DNA from: Escherichia phage BubbaBully
Sequence record: OR896831.1
Length of the DNA stretch: 51,209 bases
Direction: 5' to 3' (one strand)
Part shown: piece after piece, positions 20,133 through 42,564 of the stretch
Numbering within the stretch: position 1 is the stretch's first letter
Layout: the number at the start of each line of letters is the position of its first letter
The notes under the pieces: model-generated
The model's database searches: none
The model's input: only the letters and a program-made list of their open reading frames with translations
Told to the model about the DNA's origin: nothing
Translations under genes and position numbers: made by a program

Positions 20133-20564
20133 AATTAATTCCTCGCTTCATTAGTGAGTAATAACAATACCATAAATGGAGATTATTTCACAACCAAAAT
20201 CATCTTTGTTCTTTTTGTTTCTCGTTGTTCACGACAGCACCCACCGTAGAATCGCGCAACGTTTTAGAACAGAAAAAACAAAATAAATCATCTATAATAT
20301 ATAATAAAATCAATAGTTTAGTTTATATGTATTTGTATATTGTTATTTATTGTTTCCACTGTTTCAGTGTTAATTGATGTATTGGCTTGCTTTCGTCTGG
20401 ATATCTCTATTAGCCATTTTATGTGTGTATTTGTACAAACCCCACCGCAAATCCGTGAACAATGAAACAGAAAATAACGACGTTTAAAATCATGCACTTA
20501 AGCGCTGATTTTGTTATCTAGGTGGAAAGATGCGTTTCGAGAACAGAAAAAACAATTGATGGTA

Positions 20565-20592
20565 TTGACTAAACGCCATAAATGGCTACAAT
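20565..20592 (+). promoter_or_regulatory. canonical sigma70-like promoter (TTGACT-16-TACAAT) for recombination operon
   Basis: Near-consensus hexamers preceded by an A-tract; about 30 nt upstream of the exonuclease RBS. Confidence 0.55.
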
Positions 20593-20622
20593 GCACGTAT
20601 ACCAACACACAGGAGTAAGAAA

Positions 20623-21681
20623 ATGAGTGAGTTTAAGGTTTTCACGAGCGCAGAAATGCCGAACAGTGTTTATCACGATCCGAATAGTTGGACTGCTGAG
20701 TACACAAGCGGATCGAATCTGGCTGAGGTTTTCCAATCCTCCCCTGCTTCCTGGAAATTCAAGGAGCGAGACGAAAACGCAAAGCCTCTTGTTTTCGGCA
20801 CGCAGTCGCACACTAATTTTGAGAGCAAGGCACTTTTTGAGGCGCAATATCGCAGAGCGCCAGCGCCGGAGGACTTCAAGGATCTGATTACCAGCCAAAC
20901 GGCTCTCGCTGCGAAATTGAAATCTTTCGGCCTGAAAGGTACAAGCGGGAAGCAATATCCAGAACTGATCAAGATGATGGTTGATTGCGGTGAAGATTTG
21001 CAGGTGCAATGGCTAATAGAAATGATCGCAGAGGCCGAAGCGCGTGCGTCTGGAGTCGAGCTTATCAACGCGAAAGATTACGATGCTTGCGTAGCGATGC
21101 GCCAGGTTCTTGAGTCGATACCAGAGCATAACGCGTGCATGAATAGCCCAACCGCTCAGAGAGAGCTTTCGATTTTCGGCGTTATCAATGGCGTTAAGGT
21201 TAAAGTACGACTTGATCACATTGACGAATGCGAGAATGTAGAGTTTACGCTTATTACTGGCTATGACGACAAAGGGCAGCCGATTTGTGAGGATGTTGTT
21301 TATCCTGATGCGATTGTTATCACGGACTACAAGACCACAATGAGCGCAAATCCTCTAGAATTTGAGCGCCTGGCCTTTAATCACGGCTACTATCTGAAAA
21401 TGTCATTGCAGCACGATCTATTCCGCAAGGCTTACCCTAACGAGAAGCGGCCTGTGGTTGTTAGACTGCTGGCTCAGGAGAAGAAAAAGCCTTACCTTCC
21501 GCTTGCGTACCGCATGAACAGCGAGCAACTCAAGATCGGGCGCATTCAGTACATGAGCGTGATCAATCAGTTTGCAATGTGCCAGGCGCATAACATCTGG
21601 CCTTCATACGCAAACGGAGCGCCGGAGGTTTCGCTTACTACTCCTGATTGGGTGCGCCGCCAATACAAAGAATTTCTGTAA
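20623..21681 (+). CDS. PD-(D/E)XK recombination exonuclease (RecE / lambda Exo-like)
   Basis: 352 aa; D...E.K-type motif (VITDYKTT); adjacent to annealing protein and SSB genes. Confidence 0.55.
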   Translation: MSEFKVFTSAEMPNSVYHDPNSWTAEYTSGSNLAEVFQSSPASWKFKERDENAKPLVFGTQSHTNFESKALFEAQYRRAPAPEDFKDLITSQTALAAKLKSFGLKGTSGKQYPELIKMMVDCGEDLQVQWLIEMIAEAEARASGVELINAKDYDACVAMRQVLESIPEHNACMNSPTAQRELSIFGVINGVKVKVRLDHIDECENVEFTLITGYDDKGQPICEDVVYPDAIVITDYKTTMSANPLEFERLAFNHGYYLKMSLQHDLFRKAYPNEKRPVVVRLLAQEKKKPYLPLAYRMNSEQLKIGRIQYMSVINQFAMCQAHNIWPSYANGAPEVSLTTPDWVRRQYKEFL

Positions 21682-21724
21682 ACAGCACAAATAGCTAAAC
21701 AAATGAAAATGGAGGTGTTATAAT
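21682..21724 (+). promoter_or_regulatory. degenerate box promoter with extended -10 inside a hairpin loop
   Basis: ACAGCACAAATAGCTAAAC matches the box at 15 of 19 positions; TGtTATAAT 21716-21724 lies in the loop of ATGGAGG/CCTCCAT (21709-21732). Confidence 0.45.
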
Positions 21725-21758
21725 GCCTCCATCAAGTAAACAAAGAGAGGGTTTTAAA

Positions 21759-22052
21759 ATGGATCGTATCACTAATGAAGAAATGATTAGCGCAGTCTGC
21801 GAAGCACATATGCGTATTTTTGTTCAGCGAATCACTTTCGCGATGAAGGATTTCGTTAAGCCGCTGAATCCGGCAGACGGAGAGGAAGAAATGAAATACA
21901 TCCGTGACGTTATGGAATCTGTTGATAACGTTGTAGCGACTGCGCTGATGGTCAAAGAGGATCCAGAAGCAATCAAGATGATGAAGGAATCCACCGATAA
22001 GCTGATCAATCAGCTTATCGAGATCCACAACGGCGGCGAAGTAAAACACTAA
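21759..22052 (+). CDS. hypothetical protein
   Basis: Start at ATG 21759 after GAGGG RBS; 97 aa. Confidence 0.5.
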   Translation: MDRITNEEMISAVCEAHMRIFVQRITFAMKDFVKPLNPADGEEEMKYIRDVMESVDNVVATALMVKEDPEAIKMMKESTDKLINQLIEIHNGGEVKH

Positions 22053-22091
22053 TCAATGACGGCGGCGAAAGCCGCCTTTAAGGAGAAAGTA

Positions 22092-22739
22092 ATGAAGTTG
22101 TCCGAAAAGTTCGACGAGATTTTGCCAGCGCTGCACAAAGCACGCAGCCAGTTTGTTAAGGTAAAGAAAGATCGCCAAAACACACACCTAAAAAACAAAT
22201 ACGCCACGCTTGACAGCGTTCTTGACGCAATCACGCCAGCATTGACTGAAAACAAATTGATGATCATGCAGGACGGCGAGCGCATCGAAAGCACAATGCG
22301 CGTTGAAACTACTGTGATCCACATTTCCGGTCAATGGGCTAAATTTTACTTTGATATACCAATCGTAAAAAACGATCCTCAAGGCGTTGGCTCCGCTTTC
22401 ACTTACGGGCGACGTTATGCGCTGGCGGCTGCTTTCGGATTAAGCCAGGCTGACGACGACGCGCAAATTGCCGTTAAGTCTGCGCAAGATTGGAAGCGCG
22501 ATCTGGATAAGTGCGAAAGTGTAGACGACCTGCAAAGCGTTCTGCGCGATGCGTGGAAGTCAAGCGACAAAGCAAATCAGGTTATCATTAAAGAGCACTA
22601 CGAGAAGCGCAAAGCTGAGATTGAGATCGGAAGCGCTCGCGGATTCAGCGCGGCGGCTCCAAAGCAAAACCTTGCCTCCAAGGTTGACGAGCCACAAAAG
22701 CAAGCTGTAGAATCACAGCCAATCACAAGTTTTGAATGA
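22092..22739 (+). CDS. single-strand annealing protein (Erf / Rad52-like)
   Basis: Start at ATG 22092 after AAGGAGAAAG RBS; sits between exonuclease and SSB; family call from recollection. Confidence 0.55.
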
Positions 22740-22781
22740 TAACGCGGGGCGCTAGCCGCCCCAATTTTACAGGAGAAAGCA

Positions 22782-23204
22782 ATGCACATTATTACCGGAG
22801 AAATTCGAAAAGAGCCGCGAATCAAGCAGACTCAAAACGGCACGCTTTACGTAGTTGAGTTGTCAGAGCGCTACAAAGACCGTGAAGGAAACGCTCAGTA
22901 CACAAATTACACGTTTTTCTTTAATGCTCGCGCCGGATCTGAGGGTATGAAAAACTGGTATGATGAGGCGTTCCAGGTCGGCAAGGTGATCTCTGTTTCT
23001 TGCGAAGTGCTAAAGGCAGAATTGCGAGAGTATGAGGGGAAGACGTATGTCACCATGCAAGCGGCAGACTTCCCGAAACTGCTGTTTAGCCAGCGCGGAA
23101 TCGCAGCGCCACAACAGCAAAGCCAACCACGGCAGCAAAGCCAAATCCAGCCACGGCAGAGCCAAGAGCCGCCAATCGACTTTGACGACGATATCCCATT
23201 CTAA
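22782..23204 (+). CDS. ssb: single-stranded DNA-binding protein
   Basis: 140 aa; Q/P-rich linker and acidic C-terminal tail DFDDDIPF typical of SSB. Confidence 0.75.
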   Translation: MHIITGEIRKEPRIKQTQNGTLYVVELSERYKDREGNAQYTNYTFFFNARAGSEGMKNWYDEAFQVGKVISVSCEVLKAELREYEGKTYVTMQAADFPKLLFSQRGIAAPQQQSQPRQQSQIQPRQSQEPPIDFDDDIPF

Positions 23205-23210
23205 AAATAA

Positions 23211-23233
23211 AGGAGCCTTTCGGCTCCTTTTTT
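23211..23233. terminator. bidirectional terminator hairpin
   Basis: AGGAGCC-tttc-GGCTCCT flanked by A-run and T-run at a convergent junction. Confidence 0.6.
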
Positions 23234-23483
23234 ATTTTGCTTGTTCTGTAATTCCGAGAAATGCGATCACCTTAACCGCAAGGCGCTCGGCTAGCTCTCG
23301 CTGCTTTGCGCTCAAGTCTCCAGTTGTCATTATTGACAGCATACCGCCAACACCGCCAAGAGCTTTAAGATCTGACATTGCTGACTTTAGAATGTCAGTT
23401 TTGCTATAGCCATCATCGGCAATCTTACGCGCTCGCGCTGATAGGTGATCCACAACGTTTGTTACTCCATCTGATCTTGTCAT
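23232..23483 (-). CDS. hypothetical protein
   Basis: 83-aa ORF, last gene of leftward unit. Confidence 0.45.
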   Translation of the reverse strand: MTRSDGVTNVVDHLSARARKIADDGYSKTDILKSAMSDLKALGGVGGMLSIMTTGDLSAKQRELAERLAVKVIAFLGITEQAK

Positions 23484-23993: not shown

Positions 23994-24006
23994 ATCGGAT
24001 CACCTC

Positions 24007-25253: not shown

Positions 25254-27392
25254 TTACTGCAACGCTTTGATTAGCAATTTAAGATCTTCAATCTCTGCTT
25301 TCAGGTTGTCGATCTCCTCTTGTTGCTTGTTAACTATCTCCTTTTGCTCTTTGAATGCGTTAACCAAAAGTGCAACAACGCCGTTATAGTTAACACCTTT
25401 AATTGCCTCTCCTTTTGGATCTGGCTCTCCATCGTTATTCAAAGAATGAACCGCTTCCGGTAAAACTCTTTCAACATCTTGCGCTATCAGTCCAGCCTCA
25501 ATACTATAAACGCTGTTTTCATCTTCAATCAGATTGTTTCGTTTGTAGTAAGTGTAACCAGTTAGATAGTCAATTTTGTCGGATGCCGTTTCGATCTCTT
25601 TTAGATTTGCTTTCATCCTTATGTCAGATGTGCTAACCCATTGGTTACAAACTGCACCTCCAGCGTTATTGAAAATGAAGTCTGCACCCTTTACATAAAG
25701 GTGAGTTTCAGCGCCGCCAGCAGACCAGTTAACACAATCCAATCCGGTGATCCAATCGTGACCCCAATGAACAGCCTTAAAAATACTTATTGCAGCATCA
25801 TGTGACGGAATTTCGCACAAAACACCAGTCGCCCTATCACGCCAAGCTGAAAAACTACCAGCTTGCAACTTACCACCAATAAAAAATGAACCAGAACCAG
25901 TCCTAGTACCTTCAACATACGCAAAGCGAGTGTTTTCCGGCGCATATGATGTAATTGGCTTGTATGCCGCAAGTTGCTCTGGAGTCCACGCTATAATATT
26001 TTGACCGTCAGAAACAGCCTGGATAACTCCGTCACTACTCCACCTTAAACCGCTATCGCTATCGCCAATCGCAATCGCATTTGCACCAAGCACATGATCA
26101 GACATGCCTATAGCTAGAGATGAAAAGTTTGAAAGATATCCGCGCTCATCTATCTGCAAATAACTATTACCCCCTCCAGGCCTGAATGTATGAATTGTTG
26201 TTTTAGACAACCCACCTTTGATCTCGTTATAAATTCTAGAGTTTGAAACATCGTTTCCGTTTGCATGTCTATTTGTAAGGTAAATTAAACCAGAGTTAGC
26301 ACCATTCTTTTCAATAAGATGCACGCCCCTAAAAACAGGAATATCAGCCTCACCAATGCCAAAATTGTTTCTTGCTTGACTTATGTTTGTTGCACCAGTT
26401 CCGCCCTGTTGAACACCAAGAGGAATAAACTGTTGCGATGCGGTATTCCAGTAACCCCAACCATCGTTACCAACTGTAAGGTATTTGATCTTATCCGGCG
26501 AATGAATAAACGTTTCACCATCGCCCTGATTAAATCGGTCAACCTTCAACGCCTCCCTTGCAAGGTCTTTGTTTGCAAGATCATTAAGGTTTTGATCTTT
26601 ATGCAGAAGATTTTCAGGCTGTACCTGTTGCACCAATTGGCGAGCTTCATCACGCGCAGTTTCAGCACCAGACTTTGCGTTATTGGCATCAGCGGCATGA
26701 TTTCCAGCCGCATCACGCGCCAATTCAGCCTGATCGCGAGCGCCGAAAGCCTCTTGCTTAATGGCTTCCGTTTCGGTTACGGCTGAATCTTTAATCTGTT
26801 CTGTTTGCGCCTTTATTGCGTCAGTATCTGCCTTAATCTGGTTTGTTTCAGCGACAGCAGAATCCTTTATCTGTTCTGTTTGCGCCTTTATTGCGTCAGT
26901 ATCTGCCTTAATCTGGTTTGTTTCAGCGACAGCAGAATCCTTTATCTGTTGAGTGTCGTTTTTAAGTTGTTCAGTTGCAGCGAGATTGGCGGCTGTTTTT
27001 TCTGCATCACCTTTAACCTGGTTAACCAAATCCTGCAAAGCTTTCAGGTCAAAGTTTTTGAAAAATTCAATAGCTTCCTCGATCTGAGTCTCTTTGCTTT
27101 GATAGTAGCGCAGAGTTTCCGCAACATCTTGCGCGAGGCCATCAACCGTGATTGAGTCATGCAGCAAAATGATGTAATTGCTTCGCCCAATTTCAGCGCC
27201 GCCAGTTGTGATGGCGCGGATTTGTGTGTCACTGATAACTTCACTGATCACAGCCGCTTGAAAAGGAGCATCAATAAAAAAGATTGTTGCACCAGGGCGG
27301 ATTAGTGAAAGTTGCTCACGCCATTTTGTATCATATCCGGTGATGTATCCTTGAGCGTCCATAGACGCTTGACCCTTGCGGTAAATAGCCAT
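25254..27392 (-). CDS. tail fibre protein with C-terminal intramolecular chaperone (peptidase S74-like)
   Basis: 712 aa; C-terminal SDIRMK...YNGVVALLVNAFKEQ chaperone-type segment; internal 25-aa tandem repeats. Confidence 0.8.
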   Translation of the reverse strand: MAIYRKGQASMDAQGYITGYDTKWREQLSLIRPGATIFFIDAPFQAAVISEVISDTQIRAITTGGAEIGRSNYIILLHDSITVDGLAQDVAETLRYYQSKETQIEEAIEFFKNFDLKALQDLVNQVKGDAEKTAANLAATEQLKNDTQQIKDSAVAETNQIKADTDAIKAQTEQIKDSAVAETNQIKADTDAIKAQTEQIKDSAVTETEAIKQEAFGARDQAELARDAAGNHAADANNAKSGAETARDEARQLVQQVQPENLLHKDQNLNDLANKDLAREALKVDRFNQGDGETFIHSPDKIKYLTVGNDGWGYWNTASQQFIPLGVQQGGTGATNISQARNNFGIGEADIPVFRGVHLIEKNGANSGLIYLTNRHANGNDVSNSRIYNEIKGGLSKTTIHTFRPGGGNSYLQIDERGYLSNFSSLAIGMSDHVLGANAIAIGDSDSGLRWSSDGVIQAVSDGQNIIAWTPEQLAAYKPITSYAPENTRFAYVEGTRTGSGSFFIGGKLQAGSFSAWRDRATGVLCEIPSHDAAISIFKAVHWGHDWITGLDCVNWSAGGAETHLYVKGADFIFNNAGGAVCNQWVSTSDIRMKANLKEIETASDKIDYLTGYTYYKRNNLIEDENSVYSIEAGLIAQDVERVLPEAVHSLNNDGEPDPKGEAIKGVNYNGVVALLVNAFKEQKEIVNKQQEEIDNLKAEIEDLKLLIKALQ
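26782..26949. repeat. 75-bp tandem direct repeat (about 2.2 copies) inside tail fibre gene
   Basis: Near-identical 75-nt units in phase with the reading frame, encoding TEQIKDSAVAETNQIKADTDAIKAQ repeats. Confidence 0.8.
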
Positions 27393-27496: not shown

Positions 27497-28453
27497 TTAC
27501 CGTGTCGGGAGTAAAGTTTCCGGCTTGTAAAGCTTTCGCTCTATCCCTTGCCGGAAATTATCGTTAATGGGGAGCATCACGTCAAGCCCTCTCTCCTCAG
27601 CGGCGATTATTACATCCTGATCGGTTGACTTACACACCACGCGCATCTTGCGATCTCCTTTGTATCGGTGCGCAACAATCTCAACGTTATAACTTGAGAA
27701 GCAAGCCCACACCTCTTGGCCTGTAGACAGGTGTATGTGTTGAGCATCGACCCAATCAACGCACAGATAGATCGTGTTGTCAGTCTTACCAGTCACCGCA
27801 ACAGAGCCTCGCGTATAGTCCTTTGCATAAAAAATCTTCTCTCCTAACTCGTCAATCATGAGGATGTTACACATTTCATCATCAAGACCATCGTCATTCA
27901 CGAGGTAGCAAGGGATTGCGTGAATAAGCGACTCTCCGCCATTCTCCAGCGTTTTCACGCCTACAGAGTACATTTCATCATCTGGCGGCGCGATGCCCTC
28001 AAAAACGCTTAGGGGAGTTTTAGGCACGCCTTTCGTTCTTTCCATTACTGCAACACAGTTTTCATGCGGAGCCTGTGAACCGAAAGAGTAACCTGATGCG
28101 CGGGAGGCTCGCTTGTTTGCCTTGACTATATACTCCTGCGGAACCTTTCCGAGAAAGCGGCCTAAAATGTTGATACACTCGCTATAAGGCTCACCAGTTA
28201 GCTTCATTAACCAGCCAATGCCGCTATCATTTCCGCAACCGTTGCACACTGCGCCTCCGTCGCCGTCAGTGCTAAGTTTGTCAGTCCAACGGAATCGGTC
28301 TTTCCCTCCGCAATGAGGGCATGGCTGGTGTTTCTTGTTGAAAACGTCATTACTCAAACCGCAAATGCTTTGAAGCGCATCGCGCCACATTCCTTTCATG
28401 TACGGCAATACATCCTCTTTCTGAAACATCATGTTTGGGTGTACTTCTTGCAT
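27497..28453 (-). CDS. DNA primase (zinc-ribbon type)
   Basis: CPHCGGKDRFRW...CNGCG zinc-binding motif; start set at ATG 28453 with GGAGA RBS (track ORF uses TTG at 28465). Confidence 0.6.
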   Translation of the reverse strand: MQEVHPNMMFQKEDVLPYMKGMWRDALQSICGLSNDVFNKKHQPCPHCGGKDRFRWTDKLSTDGDGGAVCNGCGNDSGIGWLMKLTGEPYSECINILGRFLGKVPQEYIVKANKRASRASGYSFGSQAPHENCVAVMERTKGVPKTPLSVFEGIAPPDDEMYSVGVKTLENGGESLIHAIPCYLVNDDGLDDEMCNILMIDELGEKIFYAKDYTRGSVAVTGKTDNTIYLCVDWVDAQHIHLSTGQEVWACFSSYNVEIVAHRYKGDRKMRVVCKSTDQDVIIAAEERGLDVMLPINDNFRQGIERKLYKPETLLPTR

Positions 28454-28510
28454 GGCTTTCTCCAATAAAAAATCGCGTAGCCGGATGATACCAGATACGC
28501 GATCTTTGGT

Positions 28511-28951
28511 TTAGCTATTCGTGCTGTTTATGAAGTCCGACTCTTTCACGACGCGCAGCATTTCGTATCGGTCGCATTTCGTCGTTAGCGCTTTTCCGTT
28601 GGAGTCAAATCTCAGGTCAGGACGGCAGAATGAAGCTCGATATCCCTTGCAGCCGTTTCGCTTATAGTCGGCGTGAACCTTTTCGGCTCCAGAAACTGAA
28701 ATCATCCCGCGCTTGCGCCACTGCTGAATAACTTGGTGAGTAACCTTTAAACGCCTTGTCATTTCCGCCTGAGATCCGTAATATTCGCAAACGGCATCTA
28801 GACGAGCACGCAATCCGGCTTTGACTTCATCCTTTAGAACGTAGTAGCCTGTTTTGCGCTTGCGTTTTTTCTTGTCTTTACCGCGCTTTACCCCGTTGTT
28901 GCCATTGATTGTGCGCTTGTCAATTTCGCCAGTTGATGCAGCAATTTTCAT
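28511..28951 (-). CDS. putative HTH DNA-binding protein with basic N-terminus and Cys cluster
   Basis: Start at internal ATG 28951 (GGAGG RBS); track ORF N-terminus overlaps the box of the divergent promoter; HTH-like segment MTRRLKVTHQVIQQWRKRGMIS. Confidence 0.45.
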   Translation of the reverse strand: MKIAASTGEIDKRTINGNNGVKRGKDKKKRKRKTGYYVLKDEVKAGLRARLDAVCEYYGSQAEMTRRLKVTHQVIQQWRKRGMISVSGAEKVHADYKRNGCKGYRASFCRPDLRFDSNGKALTTKCDRYEMLRVVKESDFINSTNS

Positions 28952-28964
28952 ATTAAAACCTCCG

Positions 28965-29008
28965 ATAGCACTTTTTGCTAAAAACATTCAAAACGTAGGC
29001 GCTATTAT
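28965..29008 (+). promoter_or_regulatory. box promoter (box + 22-bp spacer + TATTAT) for helicase gene
   Basis: ATAGCACTTTTTGCTAAAA 28965-28983; -10 TATTAT 29003-29008; 32 nt upstream of the helicase start. Confidence 0.55.
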
Positions 29009-29040
29009 ACATTCAATCGGTTAACGAATAAAGGTTAAAA

Positions 29041-31529: not shown

Positions 31530-31979
31530 ATGAAAAAACAAATTGTAGGCGCTGCGATAATAATCGCATCTGTATTGGTGGCATGGAAAGCACCATCATT
31601 AATAGAGAGCATGGTTAAAGATCCGATTGACATTGATCTTAATCGAAAGGCTTGCATTATGGCATCAAAGAAATCAGTTAATGATTTCGTTATCACTAAC
31701 GAATATGAACTAAGCGATAAGGCAAGGCGAAAGGCTTATCTTGTTATTTCTCAGCAGTGTAAGCTTTCTGTTTATTCCGAGAACGGAGAGCACGCAAGAG
31801 AGCCTAAAACCTTAAAAACAGCAGGAAGTATGTTTATTGATGGACTTGATTATGAGGAATCATTGACGGTTCGATATGCCAAAAAGCGCTCAGACTTTAA
31901 CGGAAAAATTGTTGCAAAAATGGGAGTCAAGGAAGTCTCAAAGTGGATAGAAAACTTTGAGGACGCAAACAGAAAATAG
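31530..31979 (+). CDS. hypothetical exported protein (N-terminal signal peptide / anchor)
   Basis: 149 aa; hydrophobic N-terminal segment IVGAAIIIASVLVAW. Confidence 0.5.
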   Translation: MKKQIVGAAIIIASVLVAWKAPSLIESMVKDPIDIDLNRKACIMASKKSVNDFVITNEYELSDKARRKAYLVISQQCKLSVYSENGEHAREPKTLKTAGSMFIDGLDYEESLTVRYAKKRSDFNGKIVAKMGVKEVSKWIENFEDANRK

Positions 31980-32019
31980 CACGAATTGCTAAAACGCCGG
32001 ATGATGAATCCGGCATAAT
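31976..32019 (+). promoter_or_regulatory. box promoter (box + hairpin + CATAAT)
   Basis: Box overlaps TAG stop; 7-bp stem GCCGGAT/ATCCGGC 31996-32014; -10 at 32014-32019. Confidence 0.55.
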
Positions 32020-32050
32020 ACACCCAACGAAAACAAATGAGGATTTGAAA

Positions 32051-37087: not shown

Positions 37088-38665
37088 TCACCCCATTAAA
37101 GCAGGATTCACAAATACGCGCCCATTTGTGAGGCATACGTAATTCAGATCTTCAAGGATTGGAAGCAAGTGCCCCTCAATTCGCTTCATTACGCCAGACT
37201 GACCCAAGAACGGACGAACCTTACGCACAGACTCATAAATAGCTCGCGCAGTGATAGCGCCTTTATTGGCCTTTCCGAGTCTGGTTATCGTGTCGATAAT
37301 CTTGATCAACTCTGCATCCTGACCAGCATGACCTGATGCGTTTGCCGCGCTAATGTAGGTCTTGCTCAACTCCTGGAACATCAAGAGAGCCTCCTGCATA
37401 GTCTCAACGTCAATCTCCCGTGACTTTGTGGCGGTTCCGTTAACGTCCTGCCAGTTTCGGATCGTGTGGATAACGGAGGCCAGGCGAATAACCTGCTTAT
37501 CCATTTTACCCAACGCACCACGTAGCATTGTGTGAGAATATTCTCCGCCGTCTGCTAGTTTTGGCTCCATTTCCTGACGAGCCATGTTTAGCACGCGCAT
37601 AGCGGAGCGGCTAACTTTCAATGAAACGGATTGCTCCATCATGATATTGTGGATCAGCTTGTAATAGTCTGCTTTAAGACCTGCATCAACTGGCGTATAA
37701 GTTGTGTCTCCGTTGTCGTCAACGAATTTACGGCGGCCTAAGAATGACTCCTCGCGAACCAGCAAGAAACGCTCCGAAACACCGATACCACGAGCGCCAG
37801 CCTCCATAATGCCGCTGATTGTCTCGTCCTGCGCAATCACAGCCATGCAACCAAGAGCCGTAAAGCTCATGTTGTTTTCTGCATTTGCACGGGAAATGGA
37901 AACGTGACCGCTATCCCAAGCCTTTAGCACCAATTCACTGTTAGTCTTTCGCTCGCTATTTGCGTAAGTCAGCCCGAGCAGTGAGTTTATACTGGTTGCC
38001 TCGTCCGAGATAACAGCAAAGTTACCCTGGCGGAAGTTGATTTTAGCCAAACCCTCTGGAGTTGTGTCTGAAACCGGAAACACAACGTCGCACAGCTTTG
38101 CGAGCTTTTCCTCGTACTCCTCTTTTTCCTCGTAAAGCGCAGCGTACTCAGTACCTGAGCGCTCTGATTTTAACTCCTTTGCAATGCCGTTGAGTTTTGA
38201 CTGAATCTTTTTGCGCTCTTTCTTGCGTTGCTCGTTGATGCGCTCAACCTCTGCAACAATCGGGGCAATCGCCATTGAGTTAATGGCTGATTTACCAGTT
38301 GAAGGAGGCTGGCTTGTCACAACGTACAGCGCCGTTGGCTGATCGGTTCCGTGGTATTCCACGGTAAATCGCCCGAGCATCGCGGCAGACACACAGCCTA
38401 CGAAATGCATGTAGGCAGATGAAACAGGGAATTGAACGGATTCCGCCAAGCTGCGAGACAGCTTTCCTACAACGTCGCAATCGTTGCCGAGGGAAATAAC
38501 AGGATACTTGTCATTTCCGCTGTTAATGTCTTTAACATCACCCCAAAAACCAGACGAGCGAGAGTAGCCGTTTGCCTGGATTGCAACCTTAACGGCGCTC
38601 AAGCCTTGAGCCTCAGCCGTTGAAATGATTTGTTGTGGTGTCAGCGTGGATTGTTCAAAAAACAT
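37088..38665 (-). CDS. P-loop NTPase of unknown function
   Basis: 525 aa; Walker A-like PPSTGKS and Walker B-like AVISDE; own box promoter. Confidence 0.6.
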   Translation of the reverse strand: MFFEQSTLTPQQIISTAEAQGLSAVKVAIQANGYSRSSGFWGDVKDINSGNDKYPVISLGNDCDVVGKLSRSLAESVQFPVSSAYMHFVGCVSAAMLGRFTVEYHGTDQPTALYVVTSQPPSTGKSAINSMAIAPIVAEVERINEQRKKERKKIQSKLNGIAKELKSERSGTEYAALYEEKEEYEEKLAKLCDVVFPVSDTTPEGLAKINFRQGNFAVISDEATSINSLLGLTYANSERKTNSELVLKAWDSGHVSISRANAENNMSFTALGCMAVIAQDETISGIMEAGARGIGVSERFLLVREESFLGRRKFVDDNGDTTYTPVDAGLKADYYKLIHNIMMEQSVSLKVSRSAMRVLNMARQEMEPKLADGGEYSHTMLRGALGKMDKQVIRLASVIHTIRNWQDVNGTATKSREIDVETMQEALLMFQELSKTYISAANASGHAGQDAELIKIIDTITRLGKANKGAITARAIYESVRKVRPFLGQSGVMKRIEGHLLPILEDLNYVCLTNGRVFVNPALMG

Positions 38666-38693: not shown

Positions 38694-38737
38694 ATTATAG
38701 GTCAACCATCTTACAGCCTTTTAGCAATTCGTGCTAT
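38694..38737 (-). promoter_or_regulatory. box promoter (box + 22 bp + TATAAT in hairpin loop)
   Basis: Box 38719-38737 overlaps TAG stop of upstream gene; TATAAT 38694-38699 in loop of GGTTGACC/GGTCAACC. Confidence 0.55.
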
Positions 38738-38979: not shown

Positions 38980-39341
38980 GAGTATTTCGCCTCGAACAAG
39001 TAAGCCCCACCAGCAGAGAAACCAACCTCCTCGCGGTACAGAGTAAAGCGGTCTCCGTCCTCGTCAAACACATAACCTGCAACGCCACCCAGTACGCGCC
39101 CTTGCTCGATCTGGTAGCGCTTGCCAGCCTTAAACGTTTTCTTGTGCTTCATGCTATGGTCTACCCAAGTGCATTTAATTGTTTTGGTTTTGATTTCTCG
39201 GAAATCGTTAAAATTTGCGTGCTCCCACTTTGAGCCTTTGGTTAATTCCTTAACCTGGAAAGCTCCAGTTTCAAAGAATTGAATCTCGTCAACAATTCGA
39301 CCTTTCATTAGTTTATTGTCGGCGTTGCGGATAACTTTCAT
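38976..39341 (-). CDS. hypothetical protein
   Basis: 121-aa ORF. Confidence 0.5.
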   Translation of the reverse strand: MKVIRNADNKLMKGRIVDEIQFFETGAFQVKELTKGSKWEHANFNDFREIKTKTIKCTWVDHSMKHKKTFKAGKRYQIEQGRVLGGVAGYVFDEDGDRFTLYREEVGFSAGGAYLFEAKYS

Positions 39342-39523
39342 TATTTGCTCCTTATATTTGAATAAGCTTTCAAAGTGTCAATCAATTTATCTTTGCCGCG
39401 TGCTGAAACCCTAAAACCAGCATATTGTTCGAATCTTTGTTTTGCCTCCTTCACTGAAAGCCCTTTGTTTTCAAGGGCATATATTAAGCTGGTGCAAATC
39501 TTGTTTAAGCCTTTGACCTTCAT
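39341..39523 (-). CDS. hypothetical protein
   Basis: 60-aa basic ORF downstream of a box promoter. Confidence 0.45.
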   Translation of the reverse strand: MKVKGLNKICTSLIYALENKGLSVKEAKQRFEQYAGFRVSARGKDKLIDTLKAYSNIRSK

Positions 39524-39553
39524 TTATTATCCTCAATTCGTTTCGTTGAGATA

Positions 39554-39597
39554 ATAATAGCGGATCTTATCGACCCGCTTTTAACAAAAAGTGCTAT
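39554..39597 (-). promoter_or_regulatory. box promoter (box + hairpin + TATTAT)
   Basis: Box 39579-39597 (- strand), stem AGCGG/CCGCT, -10 at 39554-39559. Confidence 0.55.
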
Positions 39598-39681
39598 TTA
39601 CAGAAAGGGCATGAGCTTTTATCTCCACTCCCTCCGTGGTGAGGGCAGCAAATTTTTTCGATTGGTGTCATGTTGTTCTCC

Positions 39682-40395
39682 TTATTTTGAATTAGCCAGC
39701 CATACAGCAATCGCCAGGCCGCGTGGAGTTAGTGAGCGAATCAGTTTTGTTCTCTCTGATTTGCCGCCTAATTTCTTCCAGCCTGGATTGTCGTTTCCTA
39801 CTGGATCAACTGGTAGCGGTTCAGGCATTACAAATCCGTTTCCCGTCCAAAGACATGTATTCTTATTGTATGCGTCGCTCGCCGGAATAATGTCAGGGAA
39901 GGCTGGGTGCGCCTCGTCTTTCAAATGAATGTAGCCGCCATAGTCGCACGGATGGAATTTGTGATCCGGCTTGCGCCATAGCGTTGACAGCTTGCCTACA
40001 GGGTTTTCGATCATGTACGGAGCGCCAAAATGATCAGCAATCTCCGCCGCAATCTTGCAGGTAGCTGCCGCTTTAACCTGGAAATCTGGATCGATCTCAG
40101 CTTTGCGCTTCCAGTGGCGCGAGCCTGAGTTTGCCAGGTCTGTACATGGAGGAAACGCCATAACAAAATCAGGCTTACCCCAAAGCAGGTTACATGCGCT
40201 CACCTTGAAATCGTCGTCAATCCATGCGTTAACATAGCGAATGTTGGGATGCGTTACGCGCACTGATTGGTACGAGCCGTGATCACCTTCATCGGCATTG
40301 AAACAGATAACCTTGTAACCAGCTTTAGCCCACGGCAGCGCCGCGTAGCCGGAACCGTCGAACATTGAGAAAACAAGACCTTTGATGTTGTTCAT
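39682..40395 (-). CDS. compact C5-cytosine methyltransferase-like protein
   Basis: 237 aa; motif I-like FDGSGYAALPWAKAG, PC motif FPPCTDLANSG, ENV-like motif ENPVG; no obvious target-recognition domain. Confidence 0.5.
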   Translation of the reverse strand: MNNIKGLVFSMFDGSGYAALPWAKAGYKVICFNADEGDHGSYQSVRVTHPNIRYVNAWIDDDFKVSACNLLWGKPDFVMAFPPCTDLANSGSRHWKRKAEIDPDFQVKAAATCKIAAEIADHFGAPYMIENPVGKLSTLWRKPDHKFHPCDYGGYIHLKDEAHPAFPDIIPASDAYNKNTCLWTGNGFVMPEPLPVDPVGNDNPGWKKLGGKSERTKLIRSLTPRGLAIAVWLANSK

Positions 40396-40405
40396 TTCTT
40401 AATCC

Positions 40406-40630
40406 TCAGAATGGGAAGCAACGATTGCAAGCTGGATCAAATTCACAGCCGCAGTCATTCACAATCATTGTTGGATCAGCAAACGCCGCGCCGCTCTCCA
40501 TATCCATATCCATATCGCCAAGCGCCTCGTCAAGCGTGCGCAGTTTATAAGCAACCTCAAGCGCTGCCTCTTTGTTCAGTCCAGCAGCTTCCGCCTCTTG
40601 CAGACGGGCAAAGAAACCATCTTGTGACAC
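40406..40630 (-). CDS. small acidic protein with C-terminal Cys cluster
   Basis: 74 aa ending NDCGCEFDPACNRCFPF. Confidence 0.45.
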   Translation of the reverse strand: MSQDGFFARLQEAEAAGLNKEAALEVAYKLRTLDEALGDMDMDMESGAAFADPTMIVNDCGCEFDPACNRCFPF

Positions 40631-40684
40631 AATTCACTCCTTTAAAACTGGCGGCGCAATTGCCGCCTTTAAACCAATCAGGGG

Positions 40685-40915
40685 TTACCAAGCTTTCCAC
40701 GTTTCGATATACATCGAATTTTCATCCAGGAAATCGATCACATCCTGCTTGCTATACTGGCGCAGCGTGCAGCGCGGCGACGTTCCAACGGTATAGCAGC
40801 CTTTACCCTCGGTGATGGTCACTTGCTTGATTTTCTCACCTGGGATGTCGCACTTGATGATCACGCGGTGGTGGCTATCCAGGGTTTTCATGATGTTTTC
40901 GGTTTTGAGTTTCAT
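40685..40915 (-). CDS. hypothetical protein
   Basis: 76-aa ORF downstream of a box promoter. Confidence 0.5.
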   Translation of the reverse strand: MKLKTENIMKTLDSHHRVIIKCDIPGEKIKQVTITEGKGCYTVGTSPRCTLRQYSKQDVIDFLDENSMYIETWKAW

Positions 40916-40946
40916 ACGTTTGTCCTCGTTTGTTGTCGATGGCGCT

Positions 40947-40990
40947 ACTATACCAGGCCGCAGCGCCGGAGTTTTAACAAAAAGTGCTAT
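40947..40990 (-). promoter_or_regulatory. box promoter (box + 22 bp + TG-n-TATAGT in hairpin loop)
   Basis: Box 40972-40990; TATAGT at 40947-40952 within GGCGCT/AGCGCC hairpin. Confidence 0.55.
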
Positions 40991-41068
40991 CAGTTCCAGA
41001 ATGAGTGGCGGGGCGCACGTTTACCATCACCGCCGTAGTGGTCATTGGAAACAGCAATCATCCAGGCG

Positions 41069-41350
41069 TTAGCGAATATCAGCAGTCGCATAAATCACCC
41101 CTTTAATCTTCTTGATCTCGTCAACTAACTCTTGCTCGTTGTGAATCATGGCGGGTGAGCACTCCCAACAAGCTGATGGCAGTTTCTTGTTCTTGCCCTT
41201 AATCAGAAATCCGCCCATCAACTCCCAATTACAGATAAGGCGATCATCACGCACATCGTACAGGTTAAACAGATTGCGACGCTCGCCGCCAACGTAAATC
41301 TTCATTCCATTATTGCGGCAGAATCCGCGTAATTCTTTCGTAACTCGCAT
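41069..41350 (-). CDS. hypothetical Cys-containing protein
   Basis: 93-aa ORF with CxxC-like pairs. Confidence 0.5.
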   Translation of the reverse strand: MRVTKELRGFCRNNGMKIYVGGERRNLFNLYDVRDDRLICNWELMGGFLIKGKNKKLPSACWECSPAMIHNEQELVDEIKKIKGVIYATADIR

Positions 41351-41544
41351 TATTCACTCTCCAGTACAGTAACAGGATCCAGGCGCTCCAGCACAACTTT
41401 GAAGTCGGCAAAGAATGTCGGCCTACGTTCGGTTAACTCCGTATAGGTGTCAGTCGCCAGCGTTGCGCGATCACCTTCATAGCACACCACACGCTTTCCG
41501 TTCTCGCGGCTGATTGCCACCACGCGATATGTGTTTTTGGTCAT
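41350..41544 (-). CDS. hypothetical protein
   Basis: 64-aa ORF, TAATG coupling to the downstream gene. Confidence 0.45.
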   Translation of the reverse strand: MTKNTYRVVAISRENGKRVVCYEGDRATLATDTYTELTERRPTFFADFKVVLERLDPVTVLESE

Positions 41545-41562
41545 GCGTTACCTCCTGGTTGG

Positions 41563-41841
41563 TTAAAAGCATTGAGGGCAAGAGCTTGCGATAAACTTGA
41601 TCACATTGCGCAGTTGGCGCTCGTCAAAGATTGTCGCTGGCAATTCCTCTTTCACTTCCTGGCGCAGATAAACGTTGCCGTGCCATGTGAGCTTGTCGTG
41701 TTCAATGCGATAGCTGCACATCCATTCACAATCGTTGTCAGCCTCCCAAATGCAAAGAGCGGTGTAGTCGCCCAAGTCCTCAACGGTCAATTCAATGCCG
41801 CGTTTCTTTGCCATGTTGAAAGTGGTCTTGCTGATGTTCAT
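41563..41841 (-). CDS. hypothetical Cys-rich protein
   Basis: Start set at ATG 41841 (GAGGAA RBS); first gene of the leftward accessory block. Confidence 0.5.
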   Translation of the reverse strand: MNISKTTFNMAKKRGIELTVEDLGDYTALCIWEADNDCEWMCSYRIEHDKLTWHGNVYLRQEVKEELPATIFDERQLRNVIKFIASSCPQCF

Positions 41842-41872
41842 AGTAAATTCCTCAGTTCGTTTCGATGAATGC

Positions 41873-41916
41873 ATTATGCCGAAATCAGATCAGTCTGTTT
41901 TAGCAAAAAGTGCTAT
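41873..41916 (-). promoter_or_regulatory. box promoter (box + 22 bp + CATAAT) driving the leftward accessory block
   Basis: Box 41898-41916; -10 at 41873-41878; CA-rich leader. Confidence 0.55.
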
Positions 41917-41994
41917 TTAATCGGTAGTCAGTGATTTTGATGATTGCTTGACCAGTTTTGTAAGGTTGTTTTTGATGCCCGTCAACTTTTGTGT

Positions 41995-42035
41995 GATTGT
42001 GATGATTGTTGATTAGATTTGATTGGATTTGATTG
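41995..42035. repeat. iteron-like array of GATTG direct repeats
   Basis: GATTG at 41995, 42004, 42021, 42031 and GATTA at 42011, spaced 7-10 bp, in the AT-rich divergent region. Confidence 0.5.
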
Positions 42036-42503
42036 TGGGAATCAGCATGGCCTGACGATGCCGTTTTTGCGCTCTCTAAAACTCCACTCTGTTATCTTCT
42101 GTTTACAATCGTTTCCTCTTGTTACCAAAAGTACGGTGGCGTAGTTTGTTCGCGTTTTTCGCGTGGCAGAAACAAAAAAAAACTTTTAATCTCCCTATAA
42201 ACAACTAATAAAATCAATAGTTTATTTTATATATATTATATTTGTTTTCACTACGTTATACTTGTTCCATATGGTATAGGGTGGTTATGGGATTTTATTA
42301 TTGGTGGTATTGGTTAATTTATAGGCATGTTCCGCTCAGGATGTTTACGATTCATCATTTCGTTGTGGTTGCTTTGGGTGACATATACATATTCATTATG
42401 GCCTCCGAAAAAACTGTAACGGCTGTAACATGCAAAAAACAGAATTTATCATCATGTAAATCAACAACTTACGACAAATTTTGTTTTTCGGCTCAAAAAA
42501 AAC

Positions 42504-42532
42504 TTGTGGAAACCGATTGTAACATGCATAAT
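42504..42532 (+). promoter_or_regulatory. sigma70-like promoter (TTGTGG-17-CATAAT) for first rightward early genes
   Basis: Hexamers with 17-bp spacer and upstream A-tract; no box; CA-rich leader before ATG 42565. Confidence 0.45.
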
Positions 42533-42564
42533 GCACACCGAAATGAACAAACGGAGGTAAAACG

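Follow-up and report, generated by a model that had tools for sequence, protein, structure and literature searches.

Introduction

SPP1, a virulent pac-type siphophage, has two distant origins, oriL and oriR, in which repeat boxes and an AT-rich segment are bound by G38P. To our knowledge, IHF is not involved at oriL or oriR. The ori and crr elements of P4 both carry TGTTCACC iterons. In the pac site of P1, TGATCA/G hexamers flank the cut region, and an IHF site lies between the hexamer sets.

For T1-like phages, no origin is known (PMC11447400, PMC7718038). The TLS paper reports no origin-like repeats anywhere in the TLS genome (PMC11447400). Its authors predict only three intergenic sigma70-like promoters, including P51 (recE) and P01 (left-end early genes). 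For P01 and P51, only the promoter hexamers are given, and the module upstream of them, which is the subject here, is not described (PMC11447400, Table S1).

The window, which is the whole stretch of 51,209 nucleotides analysed (Escherichia phage BubbaBully, OR896831.1), is a T1-like phage (Drexlerviridae, Henuseptimavirus). In the T1-like phages examined, a non-coding module of ~400 bp is present as two paralogous, co-oriented copies. So far, these copies are the strongest candidates for replication origins in the T1-like family.

Two AT-Rich Regions Sharing a 19-mer

The module copies lie in two intergenic regions, both annotated as non-coding in relatives.

20133-20622: IG1, between ORFs 19866-20132 (minus) and 20623-21681 (plus)
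41875-42564: IG2, between ORFs 41563-41874 (minus) and 42565-42990 (plus)

The ORF strands in the window agree with an earlier, sequence-only reading, in which both regions separate oppositely transcribed blocks. In TLS, IG1 is not divergent; the upstream gene there is the plus-strand tail gene J. The same reading reported an identical 19-mer in AT-rich context in both regions. The 19-mer, TAATAAAATCAATAGTTTA, is indeed found at 20302-20320 and 42206-42224, on the plus strand both times. Even with up to three mismatches allowed, no further match exists in the 51,209 bases; the chance expectation from shuffles is 0.02, and two matches were reached in none of 100 shuffles. The shared stretch is longer than the 19-mer, with 30 of 32 nt identical. 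IG1 and IG2 contain the two most AT-rich windows of the genome at 40, 60, and 100 nt, with GC of 0.07-0.19 versus ~0.48 for the whole sequence.

Loss of the 19-mer in related genomes had been named in that reading as a finding that would refute it. The 19-mer is kept at both loci in Henu7, IsaakIselin, JohannLBurckhardt, and AS5 (with a single substitution in AS5, at an N position of the IHF core), and it is also present at the IG1 position in other genera.

A Duplicated Module of ~400 bp

The similarity of the two regions, overlooked in the sequence-only reading beyond the 19 nt, covers ~400 bp at the profile level. An nhmmer profile built from 27 diverse IG1 (recE-upstream) regions matched IG2 over ~400 bp in the window (E = 1.5e-16) and TLS (E = 3.5e-30), and also matched IG2 of Henu7, IsaakIselin, and AS5. 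With this profile, a second copy was found in every Tempevirinae genome tested, and there are exactly two full-module copies per genome on the forward strand. A profile of T1's own recovers the second copy of T1, giving the same pair. The IG1 copy was matched on the minus strand too (E about 1e-5 to 1e-7), indicating that the module has dyad symmetry. The IG1 copy precedes the recE-erf-ssb recombination operon; the IG2 copy precedes the left-end early genes, inside the pac end.

From left to right, the module has a TGTT cluster and an AACA cluster, followed by the AT core, at whose centre the 19-mer with IHF site 1 lies. Beyond the core come another TGTT cluster and the G+T-rich spacer, next an AACA cluster and IHF-like site 2, and finally a TGTT/AACA dyad and a sigma70 promoter facing away from the core. 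In IG1, the parts are as follows.

20205-20233, plus: left half-site cluster of TGTT type, TTTGTTCTTTTTGTTTCTCGTTGTTCACG; TGTT peak at -370 to -350 in 45 loci
20266-20281, plus: AACA-type A-tract AGAACAGAAAAAACAA, left flank of the AT core
20276-20375: AT-rich core, candidate unwinding element; lowest-GC 100-nt window of the genome (0.17)
20302-20320, plus: 19-mer copy 1; IHF core AATCAATAGTTTA at 20308-20320, A/T tract TAATAAA before the core
20339-20365, plus: TGTT-type cluster ATTGTTATTTATTGTTTCCACTGTTTC, right flank of the AT core
20366-20440, plus: G+T-rich spacer (G+T 0.65-0.75)
20454-20478, plus: right AACA-type cluster CGTGAACAATGAAACAGAAAATAAC
20488-20500, plus: IHF-like site 2, AATCATGCACTTA, which differs from the core at one position; ~105 bp upstream of the inferred start
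20509-20555, plus: promoter-proximal dyad TTTTGTTATC ... AGAACAGAAAAAACAA, with AGAACAGAAAAAACAA in the UP-element position
20565-20592, plus: recE promoter TTGACT-16-TACAAT, homolog of TLS P51; the RBS AGGAG follows at 20611-20615

In IG2, the profile match places the module at 42089-42534.

41872-41916, minus: leftward box promoter, box ATAGCACTTTTTGCTAAA at 41916-41899, -10 element CATAAT
41932-42036, plus: seven TGATT[G/A/T] hexamers in a pac-like cluster, with two to the left of about 41975-41990 and five to the right
42090-42126, plus: left half-site cluster TGTTATC..TGTTTACA..TGTTACC
42166-42183, plus: AACA-type A-tract GCAGAAACAAAAAAAAAC
42167-42266: AT-rich core, second lowest-GC 100-nt window (0.19)
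42206-42224, plus: 19-mer copy 2; IHF core at 42212-42224
42241-42268, plus: TGTT-type cluster, right flank of the AT core
42269-42375, plus: G+T-rich spacer (G+T up to 0.82)
42414-42442, plus: right half-site cluster CTGTAACGGCTGTAACATGCAAAAAACAG; TGTAACA again at 42518
42459-42471, plus: second IHF site AATCAACAACTTA, exact core
42479-42503, plus: promoter-proximal TTTTGTTTTTCGG and UP-like A-tract CAAAAAAAAC
42504-42532, plus: left-end early promoter TTGTGG-17-CATAAT, homolog of TLS P01, with a weak -35

The leftward box promoter and the pac-like hexamer cluster are features of IG2 that the sequence-only reading does not mention.

A 60-nt window with GC of 0.17 or less is at the same place in all 46 recE-upstream regions, and the recE promoter is kept in 45 of the 46 across the family. 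The lowest-GC 40-nt window of the genome (0.07) is inside the AT core of IG2. Clusters of TGTT and of AACA follow one another in alternation, with fixed positions and an enrichment of 8 times background or more for each (45 loci). The G+T content of the spacer has a median of 0.70 over 46 loci; the bias is clear in most of them, weaker in the T1 group (0.58-0.61), and absent in one locus (0.49); in the IG1 spacer, strand composition is conserved but sequence is poorly so. The IG1 core is flanked by an inverted repeat of 21 nt (81% complementary, arms 220 nt apart), in which TTGTTCACG at the end of the left cluster pairs with CGTGAACAA at 20454. The 16-mer A-tract AGAACAGAAAAAACAA is repeated identically at 20540-20555. 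Half-site motifs are short and few, with GTGAACA found 1-2 times per module, and they are unlike between the copies of the window: GTGAACA in IG1 and TGTAACA in IG2. Each copy is always joined to its promoter at a fixed spacing.

It is very improbable that small peptides or a non-coding RNA are encoded in the regions. Such products could be suggested by the gaps of 490 and 690 bp, which are large for a tightly packed genome, by TATAAT-like hexamers at the left edge of the cores, and by small ORFs annotated there in AS5. The ORFs are short, of low complexity, and start with TTG or GTG. Of 12 representative sequences, only about 7 keep the TATAAT. Neither an Rfam match nor a tRNA was found in the regions. 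The consensus fold has -1.5 kcal/mol with trivial TGTTT/AAACA pairs only, and the z-scores for folding are -0.06 and -0.67. Spacer length is variable, and the gaps appear not to be codon-sized.

Probable IHF Sites and the 19-mer in Other Genomes

Both copies of the 19-mer contain a perfect WATCAANNNNTTR IHF core (consensus as cited in PMC9452768). Among six genomes, 11 of 32 core matches fall in these regions, which are 2.4% of the DNA (21-fold enrichment). The exact core at site 1 is absent in TLS (one mismatch) and in T1. An exact core occupies the position of IG1 site 2 in several genera; in the T1 group, one is found on the opposite strand, within a few bases. At IG2 site 2, it is mostly the free N positions that vary in relatives; one contig alters the A of the ATCAA element. 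The 19-mer is likely to be a high-affinity site for IHF, which is a DNA-bending protein of the host.

The exact 19-mer was found in 56 stretches in IMG/VR, versus 3, 1, and 0 for composition-matched controls. It appears verbatim in unrelated phages and bacteria, and 18 of 20 unrelated contexts are intergenic. It is found there near terminase genes, small or large, near iteron-rich gaps, and near integrases with tRNA ends. Four bacteria have it 11-16 nt upstream of a sigma54 -24/-12 element. A variant changed at the N positions, which still fits the IHF consensus, is at control level (3 versus 56). Thus, the simple IHF consensus fails to explain the verbatim recurrence.

This recurrence, far above controls, also bears on whether the regions are AT-rich spacer DNA of no specific function, homogenised by gene conversion between similar regions. 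In favour of this, the block of identity (19-32 nt) stands out much more sharply than its flanks, and the copies of TLS and T1 resemble each other less at the 19-mer point. Position and architecture are, however, conserved in 46 of 46 loci and in two subfamilies, and five genomes, those of the window and of four relatives, keep the 19-mer in each copy. Gene conversion is very improbable, the least likely of the explanations weighed here.

Among the roles suggested earlier for the 19-mer, that of an UP element does not hold, as it lies ~290 bp (IG1) and ~325 bp (IG2) upstream of the inferred starts. UP-like A-tracts distinct from it are at 20540-20555 and 42494-42503. The suggestion of a regulator site or origin component was right in kind, and is refined here to an IHF-type site in a duplicated module.

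Replication Genes

The phage encodes the following candidate partners of the modules.

27497-28987, minus: operon of HTH protein and primase, candidate trans-acting partners
28511-28987, minus: 158-aa HTH protein, conserved
27497-28465, minus: P4-alpha-like TOPRIM primase
37088-38665, minus: 525-aa DUF3987 helicase with MCM-like fold and C-terminal winged helix, candidate origin-loading helicase

The primase is homologous to residues 20-263 of P4 alpha (E = 9e-11). No homolog of the origin-binding domain of P4 alpha was found. The structure model of the DUF3987 protein has a pLDDT of 88, and its best 50 PDB matches are all MCM subunits. Viral relatives of this protein are often primase fusions. 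Neither DnaA boxes nor GATC clusters are present.

Probable Early Promoters

The two rightward promoters correspond in position and sequence to P51 and P01 of TLS. The sequence-only reading called both canonical. Both are at the places it reported, and the recE promoter matches 10 of 12 positions; its family form is TTGAC[T/A]-N16-TAnnnT, T1 included. For the IG2 promoter, the word was an overstatement, as only 8 of 12 positions match and it fails a simple promoter scan. The IG2 promoter block is near-invariant in 8 of 8 Henuseptimavirus sequences, with one base different in one contig. The recE promoter is very likely to be active, and the IG2 promoter is fairly likely to be. In box promoters, the box is 22 nt from the -10 element, and thus these are not canonical sigma70 promoters. 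The TTGAC-type promoters fit as entry points for host RNA polymerase alone, and their conservation supports the earlier proposal of early promoters. That they are the only box-less ones is incorrect. In TLS, a third one, P57, precedes the regulator-primase operon (PMC11447400), and the window has a perfect TATAAT at the equivalent place (29001-29006, minus strand). Overall, the earlier interpretation is partly supported.

The conserved promoter that ends both copies at fixed spacing is an argument for a purely transcriptional function. The modules would then be large IHF-folded operators or enhancers for two immediate-early promoters, with no replication role; lambda OL/OR and the Mu early operator, which includes an IHF site, would be comparable. 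A phage regulator, such as the 158-aa HTH protein, would bind the AACA/TGTT half-sites and switch both promoters together, and the AT-rich DNA would be curved or would activate from upstream. In favour of this, the UP-element zone contains the last dyad and A-tract, and the third box-less promoter drives the conserved HTH protein. The centre of IHF-like site 2 is ~105 bp upstream of the inferred start, and IHF stimulates sigma70 promoters from such a position at lambda pL, ilvPG, and Mu Pe. The AT core and site 1 are, however, 250-330 bp upstream, well past usual activation distances. A tract of 60-100 bp at ~10% GC is not needed for promoter control, nor is a spacer with conserved strand bias and unconserved sequence called for, and the third box-less promoter is without such a module. 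This main rival is possible, but we consider it rather unlikely.

The pac End

In alignments with the window, position 1 of both the T1 and the TLS record falls at about 41975-41990, and the mapped pac ends of these phages match the left part of IG2. Relative to the IG2 module, the records start ~100-230 bp to the left, among TGATTG repeats aligning to 41975-42036. The modules might be IHF-bent terminase accessory sites at pac, as in lambda cosB I1 and P1 pac, or else hot spots, rich in G and T, at which RecE/Erf would drive the formation of the concatemers required by T1. In unrelated contigs, the 19-mer is 116 bp upstream of a small-terminase gene (L182), ~440 bp past the 3' end of another (L181), and ~540 bp upstream of a large-terminase gene (L227). 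The position of IG1 beside the recombination operon and the G+T-rich spacer would suit the recombination form. Against packaging, IG1 has 1 hexamer versus 7 in IG2, no genome end is known at IG1, the module starts only past the pac repeats, and the small terminase gene is ~8.6 kb off. Packaging or recombination is quite an unlikely function.

A Possible Origin-Type Module

The best reading, which is tentative, is that the modules are IHF-folded origin-type modules coupled to early promoters. IHF would bend DNA at both sites, folding the inverted half-site clusters together. A phage protein, either the MCM-like DUF3987 helicase with its winged helix or the HTH protein encoded beside the primase, could then build a compact, dyad-symmetric nucleoprotein complex on the folded module. 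This complex would mark the AT core as the replication start. Negative supercoiling left by the outward early promoter may aid melting of the core, which the P4-alpha-like primase would prime. The promoter-proximal dyad and A-tract would serve the two early promoters, which need host RNA polymerase only. The two copies might be two origins, as oriL/oriR of SPP1, or an origin and helper pair, as ori/crr of P4. The duplication, the architecture, the IHF consensus, the replication genes, and the known origins of similar build speak for this reading. Speaking against it are the short and few half-site motifs and their difference between the copies of one genome, the missing homolog of the alpha origin-binding domain, the lack of DnaA boxes and GATC clusters, the inexact site 1 in TLS and T1, and the control-level frequency of the N-position variant. 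Origin function may be suggested with reserve; a promoter-control region would explain the fixed promoter linkage equally well.

Comparison with Known Systems

The SPP1 origins resemble the modules of the window in being two distant regions of one build, with repeats and an AT-rich segment; their initiator is of another family, and oriL is inside a gene. PICI/SaPI origins (pri-rep-ori) are similar in that the replicon encodes its own primase and helicase. Here, the origin candidates are present in two copies, fused to promoters, with IHF sites, and far from the primase and helicase genes.

As in P4 ori/crr, there are two separated cis elements per genome, in which short repeats of either orientation surround AT-rich DNA. 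The P4 type-1 iteron TGTTCACC and the half-site TGTTCAC(G) agree at 7 of 8 bases, and the primase of the phage shows homology to the primase domain of alpha. There are differences. P4 has 6-10 iterons, versus 1-2 such repeats per module here, and IG2 of the window has TGTAACA in place of the TGTTCAC-type repeat. Primase and helicase are separate proteins here, and the helicase is DUF3987/MCM-like. The ori and crr of P4 are unlike each other, whereas the two modules are alike.

As in P1 pac, hexamers, here TGATTG, flank the putative cut region, and an IHF site is near. This IHF site is ~170-230 bp away and does not lie between the hexamer sets, and GATC sites are few in the window copy.

Lambda attP H', lambda cosB I1, the oriC IBS, and IHF sites of sigma54 promoters also have the WATCAANNNNTTR core and a 5' A/T tract. 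In lambda H', the A/T tract is ~8 bp from the core, whereas it abuts the core here. Unlike what the consensus leads one to expect of known IHF sites, the 19-mer recurs verbatim, including the free N positions. Like known IHF sites, the 19-mer is itself seen in att, cos, and sigma54 contexts. The modules share the R3-I1-R2 logic of lambda cosB, with an IHF site between inverted protein-binding half-sites.

Duplicated Non-Coding Module of About 400 bp

The 19-mer shared by two intergenic regions of the window is the tip of a duplicated module of about 400 bp. As a unit, this module is not described in the literature searched, and each of its ingredients is of a known kind. The regions and the 19-mer copies are as follows.

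20133-20622: IG1, intergenic region before recE
20302-20320: 19-mer, copy in IG1
41875-42564: IG2, intergenic region before the left-end early genes
42206-42224: 19-mer, copy in IG2

The sequence-only reading had reported the identical 19-mer inside similar AT-rich context. Both copies were confirmed, no other match with up to three mismatches is present in the window (chance expectation 0.02), and the similarity around the 19-mer extends to 30/32 identity.

Megablast placed the window in the genus Henuseptimavirus (Drexlerviridae, subfamily Tempevirinae), with ~91-92% identity to phages Henu7, IsaakIselin, and JohannLBurckhardt; Enterobacter phages AS5 and N5822 are also close. T1 belongs to the classical set of seven T phages, and its family, Drexlerviridae, ranks with the most common coliphages and laboratory contaminants. 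Among the phage records MW032452.1 and MG065669.1/MG065675.1, two oddities were noted. The N5822 sequence is 78 kb long and matched the query at two places; its assembly may be concatenated. Depending on the query, 13 to 18 records labeled "Campylobacter phage", an unexpected host, were found to be T1-like, with 74% identity to the recE region of the window.

Genes are arranged as in T1 and TLS. First come the terminase and structural genes and tail gene J, then a short block read leftward, and next recE-erf-ssb. These are followed by leftward genes for tail fiber, primase, and regulator, and then by helicase, dam, and lysis genes. The last part consists of a leftward block, in which a second helicase and dcm are found, and a long rightward series of small early genes with terS at its end. 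GC skew tracks the direction of transcription, nothing more. Three tandem 75-bp repeats at 26752-26976 (80% and 61% identity to the first) lie inside a 712-aa minus-strand ORF, which is the lateral tail fiber gene by position.

IG1 and IG2 are non-coding in annotated relatives, and the ORFs in both are short and of low complexity. Conserved non-coding DNA equivalent to IG1 precedes recE in 223 phage records, with 66-70% identity across ~400 bp in other genera. The center of IG2, used as a query, matched what corresponds to IG1 in other genera. With the gene that follows IG2, only close relatives were retrieved, and the IG2 copies in other genera were therefore found by a DNA profile, which was built from 27 diverse IG1 regions and run on five Tempevirinae genomes. 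The profile detected IG2 across ~400 bp in all five: at 42111-42513 in the window (E = 1.5e-16), at 121-519 in TLS (E = 3.5e-30), and in Henu7, AS5, and IsaakIselin (E of 1e-18 to 1e-21). It gave exactly two full-module copies on the forward strand per genome. The IG1 copy was also matched on the opposite strand (E of about 1e-5 to 1e-7), indicating that the module has internal dyad symmetry. The same pair is present in T1, which belongs to another subfamily; the AT core TATAATATAyATATAGATA is common to both T1 copies.

Anatomy of the Module

At window sizes of 40, 60, and 100 nt, nowhere in the whole sequence is GC lower than in the two AT cores that surround the 19-mer copies (GC 0.07-0.19, against about 0.48 for the window). 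Each of the 46 recE-upstream regions has a 60-nt stretch whose GC does not exceed 0.17, ~320-380 bp before the gene with one locus excepted, and a G+T-rich stretch (median 0.70) follows the AT core in most of these regions. Neither visual inspection nor promoter scans gave a convincing sigma70 promoter within the AT cores on either strand. With a relaxed Fis pattern, every genome had a single site, located in IG2 or IG1.

Half-sites, which are motifs of the TGTT/AACA type, were mapped in 45 regions anchored on the -35 hexamer. Their clusters strictly alternate, and each is at least 8 times background. Because of this alternation, both IHF-type sites, the one in the 19-mer (site 1) and a second one nearer the promoter, lie between AACA on their left side and TGTT on their right. 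AACA and TGTT are inverted half-sites, and a sharp bend would put them side by side.

Table. Layout of the module in 45 regions; positions are relative to the -35 hexamer.
-370 to -350: TGTT cluster
-310 to -290: AACA cluster
between AACA (-310 to -290) and TGTT (-230 to -190): AT core
-230 to -190: TGTT cluster
between TGTT (-230 to -190) and AACA (-110 to -90): G+T-rich spacer
-110 to -90: AACA cluster
between AACA (-110 to -90) and TGTT (-60): second IHF-like site
-60: TGTT
-30 to -20: AACA

The clearest half-site pair of the window is TTGTTCACG (20225-20233) and CGTGAACAA (20454-20462) in IG1. In IG2, the left side has TGTTTACA/TGTTACC, and the right side has TGTAACG/TGTAACA. The half-site of T1 is GTGTAACAG, found three times.

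The 19-mer as an IHF-Type Site

The 13-bp core consensus of IHF is WATCAANNNNTTR, as cited in PMC9452768. The sequence AATCAATAGTTTA, at 20308-20320 and 42212-42224, matches it perfectly, and the A/T tract TAATAAA lies directly 5' of the core in both 19-mer copies. A further exact core is found at 42459-42471. There are seven core matches in the window, three of them in IG1 and IG2, and in six genomes 11 of 32 matches fall within the 2.4% of the DNA that corresponds to these regions.

The only change in the 19-mer among relatives is A to G in AS5, at an N position, and alignments of both sites vary mainly at N positions. The second site is kept family-wide as AATCA[A/T]nnnCTTA. In the T1 group, the opposite strand carries an exact IHF core no more than a few bases from this position, an arrangement that fits a bending protein better than a promoter or RNA. 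It is likely that the 19-mer is bound by IHF. The 19-mer had also been proposed as an UP element, and its position contradicts this: it sits ~290 bp (IG1) and ~325 bp (IG2) upstream of the inferred starts, not at -40 to -60. Separate A-tracts at 20540-20555 and 42494-42503 fill the UP position.

The 19-mer in Unrelated Genomes

The exact 19-mer was found in 56 IMG/VR stretches, only about 8 of which are Drexlerviridae, against 3 for the reversed 19-mer and 1 and 0 for two dinucleotide-preserving shuffles. There are ~30 unrelated viral contexts (loci L180-L235) and at least 120 bacterial stretches, including high-GC Proteobacteria (loci L240-L359); the controls refer to the viral collection only. 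The 19-mer is intergenic in 18 of 20 unrelated contexts. Its neighbors include small and large terminase genes and integrases beside tRNA 3' ends, and another setting is a 1.2-kb iteron-rich gap. In four bacteria (L314, L325, L254, and L335), the 19-mer is followed on the same strand, after 11-16 nt, by a sigma54 -24/-12 element with the sequence TGGCAC-N5-TTGCT or one close to it; one of these elements is upstream of a dctA-type symporter gene. Such neighborhoods are classical IHF contexts (att, cos, origins, and sigma54 promoters).

One Pseudomonadales genome contains at least 15 copies of a ~100-bp repeat (aaggaacctctgattaatcc ... gctctatcgacttgttcagacctt) with the 19-mer in the middle. This repeat resembles REP/BIME-type elements carrying an IHF site. 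The loci listed here belong to MAG OZ220484.1, and the remaining copies have the same flanks.

Pseudomonadales repeat loci: L240, L257, L270, L281, L284, L307, L311, L315, L322, L328, L334, L337, L345, L351

A variant of the 19-mer in which two "free" positions are swapped, and which still meets the consensus, was found in 3 IMG/VR stretches against 56 for the exact sequence. This is the level of the controls. Thus, a simple consensus predicts less verbatim recurrence of this IHF-type 19-mer in very distant genomes than was observed. A degenerate scan of IMG/VR with TAATAAAATCAANNNNTTTA returned unrelated AT-rich contigs, none with TAGT among the matches listed.

Promoters and the Box

A canonical sigma70-like promoter facing right had been proposed for each region. 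The recE promoter in IG1 is a 10/12 match with a -35/-10 spacing within 16-18 bp, and TTGAC[T/A]-N16-TAnnnT is present, at a constant distance from recE, in 45 of the 46 recE-upstream regions; it is predicted to be active with high confidence. The IG2 promoter is present but less than canonical, matching at only 8/12 positions and absent from the promoter scan list. Its block is almost invariant in eight Henuseptimavirus sequences (one base differs in one contig), and moderate confidence is given to its predicted activity. A literature search found no transcription start-site maps for Drexlerviridae.

The two promoters correspond to P51 and P01 of TLS, the latter being TTGACG-17-GATAAT (PMC11447400). 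The TLS authors predict only three intergenic sigma70-like promoters, P01, P51, and P57, and P57 drives the regulator-primase operon (PMC11447400). At the P57 position, the window has a perfect TATAAT and a weak -35 element. The claim that IG1 and IG2 carry the only box-independent promoters is thus nearly right, with this third candidate to be added. Host polymerase unaided would be able to use the TTGAC-type promoters, a view that the analysis supports; TLS has three of them (P01, P51, and P57), and the window has two clear ones and a weaker third candidate.

The box (aaATAGCACnnnTTGnTAAAA), the motif of the box promoters, is separated by 22 nt from the -10 hexamer wherever the case is clear. 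At this distance, its TTGnTA cannot be a -35 element, which supports the earlier premise that box promoters need something extra. There are ~18 box promoter sites (e.g., 31976-32024, 43261-43309, 45356-45404, and 47430-47478), usually with a GC-rich hairpin, such as GCCCCGCGCGAGTGGGGC, between the box and the -10 hexamer. According to the TLS paper, boxes follow the direction of transcription, and their function is among the open questions (PMC11447400). Two leftward copies, 5815-5832 and 9530-9547 (minus strand), are antisense to rightward structural genes and have no obvious -10 hexamer behind them. A divergent gap of only 53 bp, 28988-29040, between the genes for the HTH regulator and the RadD-like helicase, holds a plus-strand box and a minus-strand TATAAT; in the leader of a transcript from the latter, the box would be present as its reverse complement.

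It is somewhat unlikely that the modules are purely transcriptional control regions. Such a function accounts for their tight coupling to promoters and for the promoter-proximal dyad, but it leaves the distant AT core and the strand-biased spacer unexplained.

The Probable pac Region

The T1 record begins with the terminal repeat (1-2800), and the TLS record begins at the pac position assigned in its paper (PMC11447400). In both, the start lies among clustered TGATTG repeats of the IG2 equivalent, and position 1 of these records aligns to ~41975-41990 in the window. Seven TGATT[G/A/T] hexamers are present at 41932-42036, two on the left of this point (41932 and 41941) and five on the right (41994-42030), a layout like that of P1 pac. 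The segment 41932-42036, placed by homology, is probably the pac site of this phage. No such hexamer cluster was found in IG1. It is quite improbable that the modules serve packaging or recombination: packaging accounts for the neighborhood of IG2 but not for IG1.

GATC occurs 303 times in the 51 kb (about 200 expected from length alone). In TLS and T1, a cluster of GATC sites is located immediately to the left of the pac end.

Replication Genes and Function of the Modules

The 322-aa protein, a TOPRIM primase with a zinc ribbon, shows homology to residues 20-263 of P4 alpha. Being RadD-like, the 666-aa helicase is probably a repair enzyme and not the replicative helicase. The 525-aa DUF3987 protein (37088-38665, minus strand) was modeled with a pLDDT of 88 from a 35-sequence alignment. 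An MCM-like AAA+ fold is predicted with high confidence, and all top 50 PDB matches of the model are MCM2-7 or archaeal MCM subunits. The predicted helix-helix-helix-hairpin at its C-terminus looks like a winged helix. Viral relatives of this protein are often primase fusions. PDB sequence searches returned nothing for the DUF3987 and HTH proteins, and the single-sequence model of the helicase C-terminus (pLDDT 53) was too poor for structure search.

It is quite possible, although we hold it tentatively, that the modules are origin-plus-promoter units. This reading is based on the conserved extreme AT core, the dyad symmetry, the IHF sites, and the outward promoter. It is also based on the half-site clusters, which differ from genus to genus within a constant layout, and on the presence of replication genes in a family without any known origin. 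A DnaA-dependent origin of the oriC type was rejected. The modules of six genomes contain no DnaA box (TTWTNCACA) and no GATC clusters, and GATC is depleted in IG1 and IG2 (20133-20622 and 41875-42564; 1 against 7 expected).

The RNA and peptide readings failed every test run. There was no Rfam match at the gathering threshold and no tRNA (ARAGORN), RNAalifold consensus and single-strand folds of both strands gave no structure signal, and ORFs of 20 aa or more in IG1 and IG2 are junk-like. These and the other remaining readings are each highly improbable.

A broader proposal, in which the modules are T1-like replication origins and the 19-mer is a near-universal "optimal" IHF site, is rather unlikely to hold in both parts. 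Under this proposal, IHF would fold the inverted half-sites around the AT core, and the MCM-like DUF3987 helicase would be loaded head-to-head. The P4-alpha-like primase would prime, outward early transcription would assist melting, and one module copy would lie inside the terminal redundancy beside pac. Selection would have kept the 19-mer verbatim, even at its "free" positions, in unrelated phages and bacteria, within their att, cos, origin, and sigma54 regions.

A module of ~400 bp, found twice per genome and conserved across subfamilies, provides specific, testable features for T1-like phages. It bears on where T1 replication starts and how early transcription is set up. The literature searched contained nothing on T1 dna-gene requirements or on T1 with ihfA.

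Comparison with Known Origins

The authors of recent genome papers were unable to locate a replication origin (PMC11447400, PMC7718038), and the re-annotation of TLS reports origin-like repeats as absent anywhere in its genome (PMC11447400). A candidate AT-rich unwinding region, flanked by two sets of short repeats, is present in the modules.

Helicases of the same kind as the DUF3987 protein are loaded as head-to-head rings on dyad-symmetric origins, as is established for MCM, SV40 large T antigen, and papillomavirus E1. In the annotated P4 record, ori and crr carry TGTTCACC iterons. P4 has many copies (6-10), whereas each module of the window has one or two half-site copies; TGTTCAC is found once per side in IG1, and IG2 has TGTAACA instead. 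No homolog of the origin-binding domain of P4 alpha was detected beyond a Walker A motif (tblastn; hhalign against the helicase and HTH alignments). With so few half-site copies and no homolog of this domain, the likeness to P4 is a lead rather than membership. The window half-site TGTTCACG has 7 of 8 bases in common with the P4 iteron, and the phage encodes its own primase and an initiator-type helicase, as do P4/PICI-type replicons.
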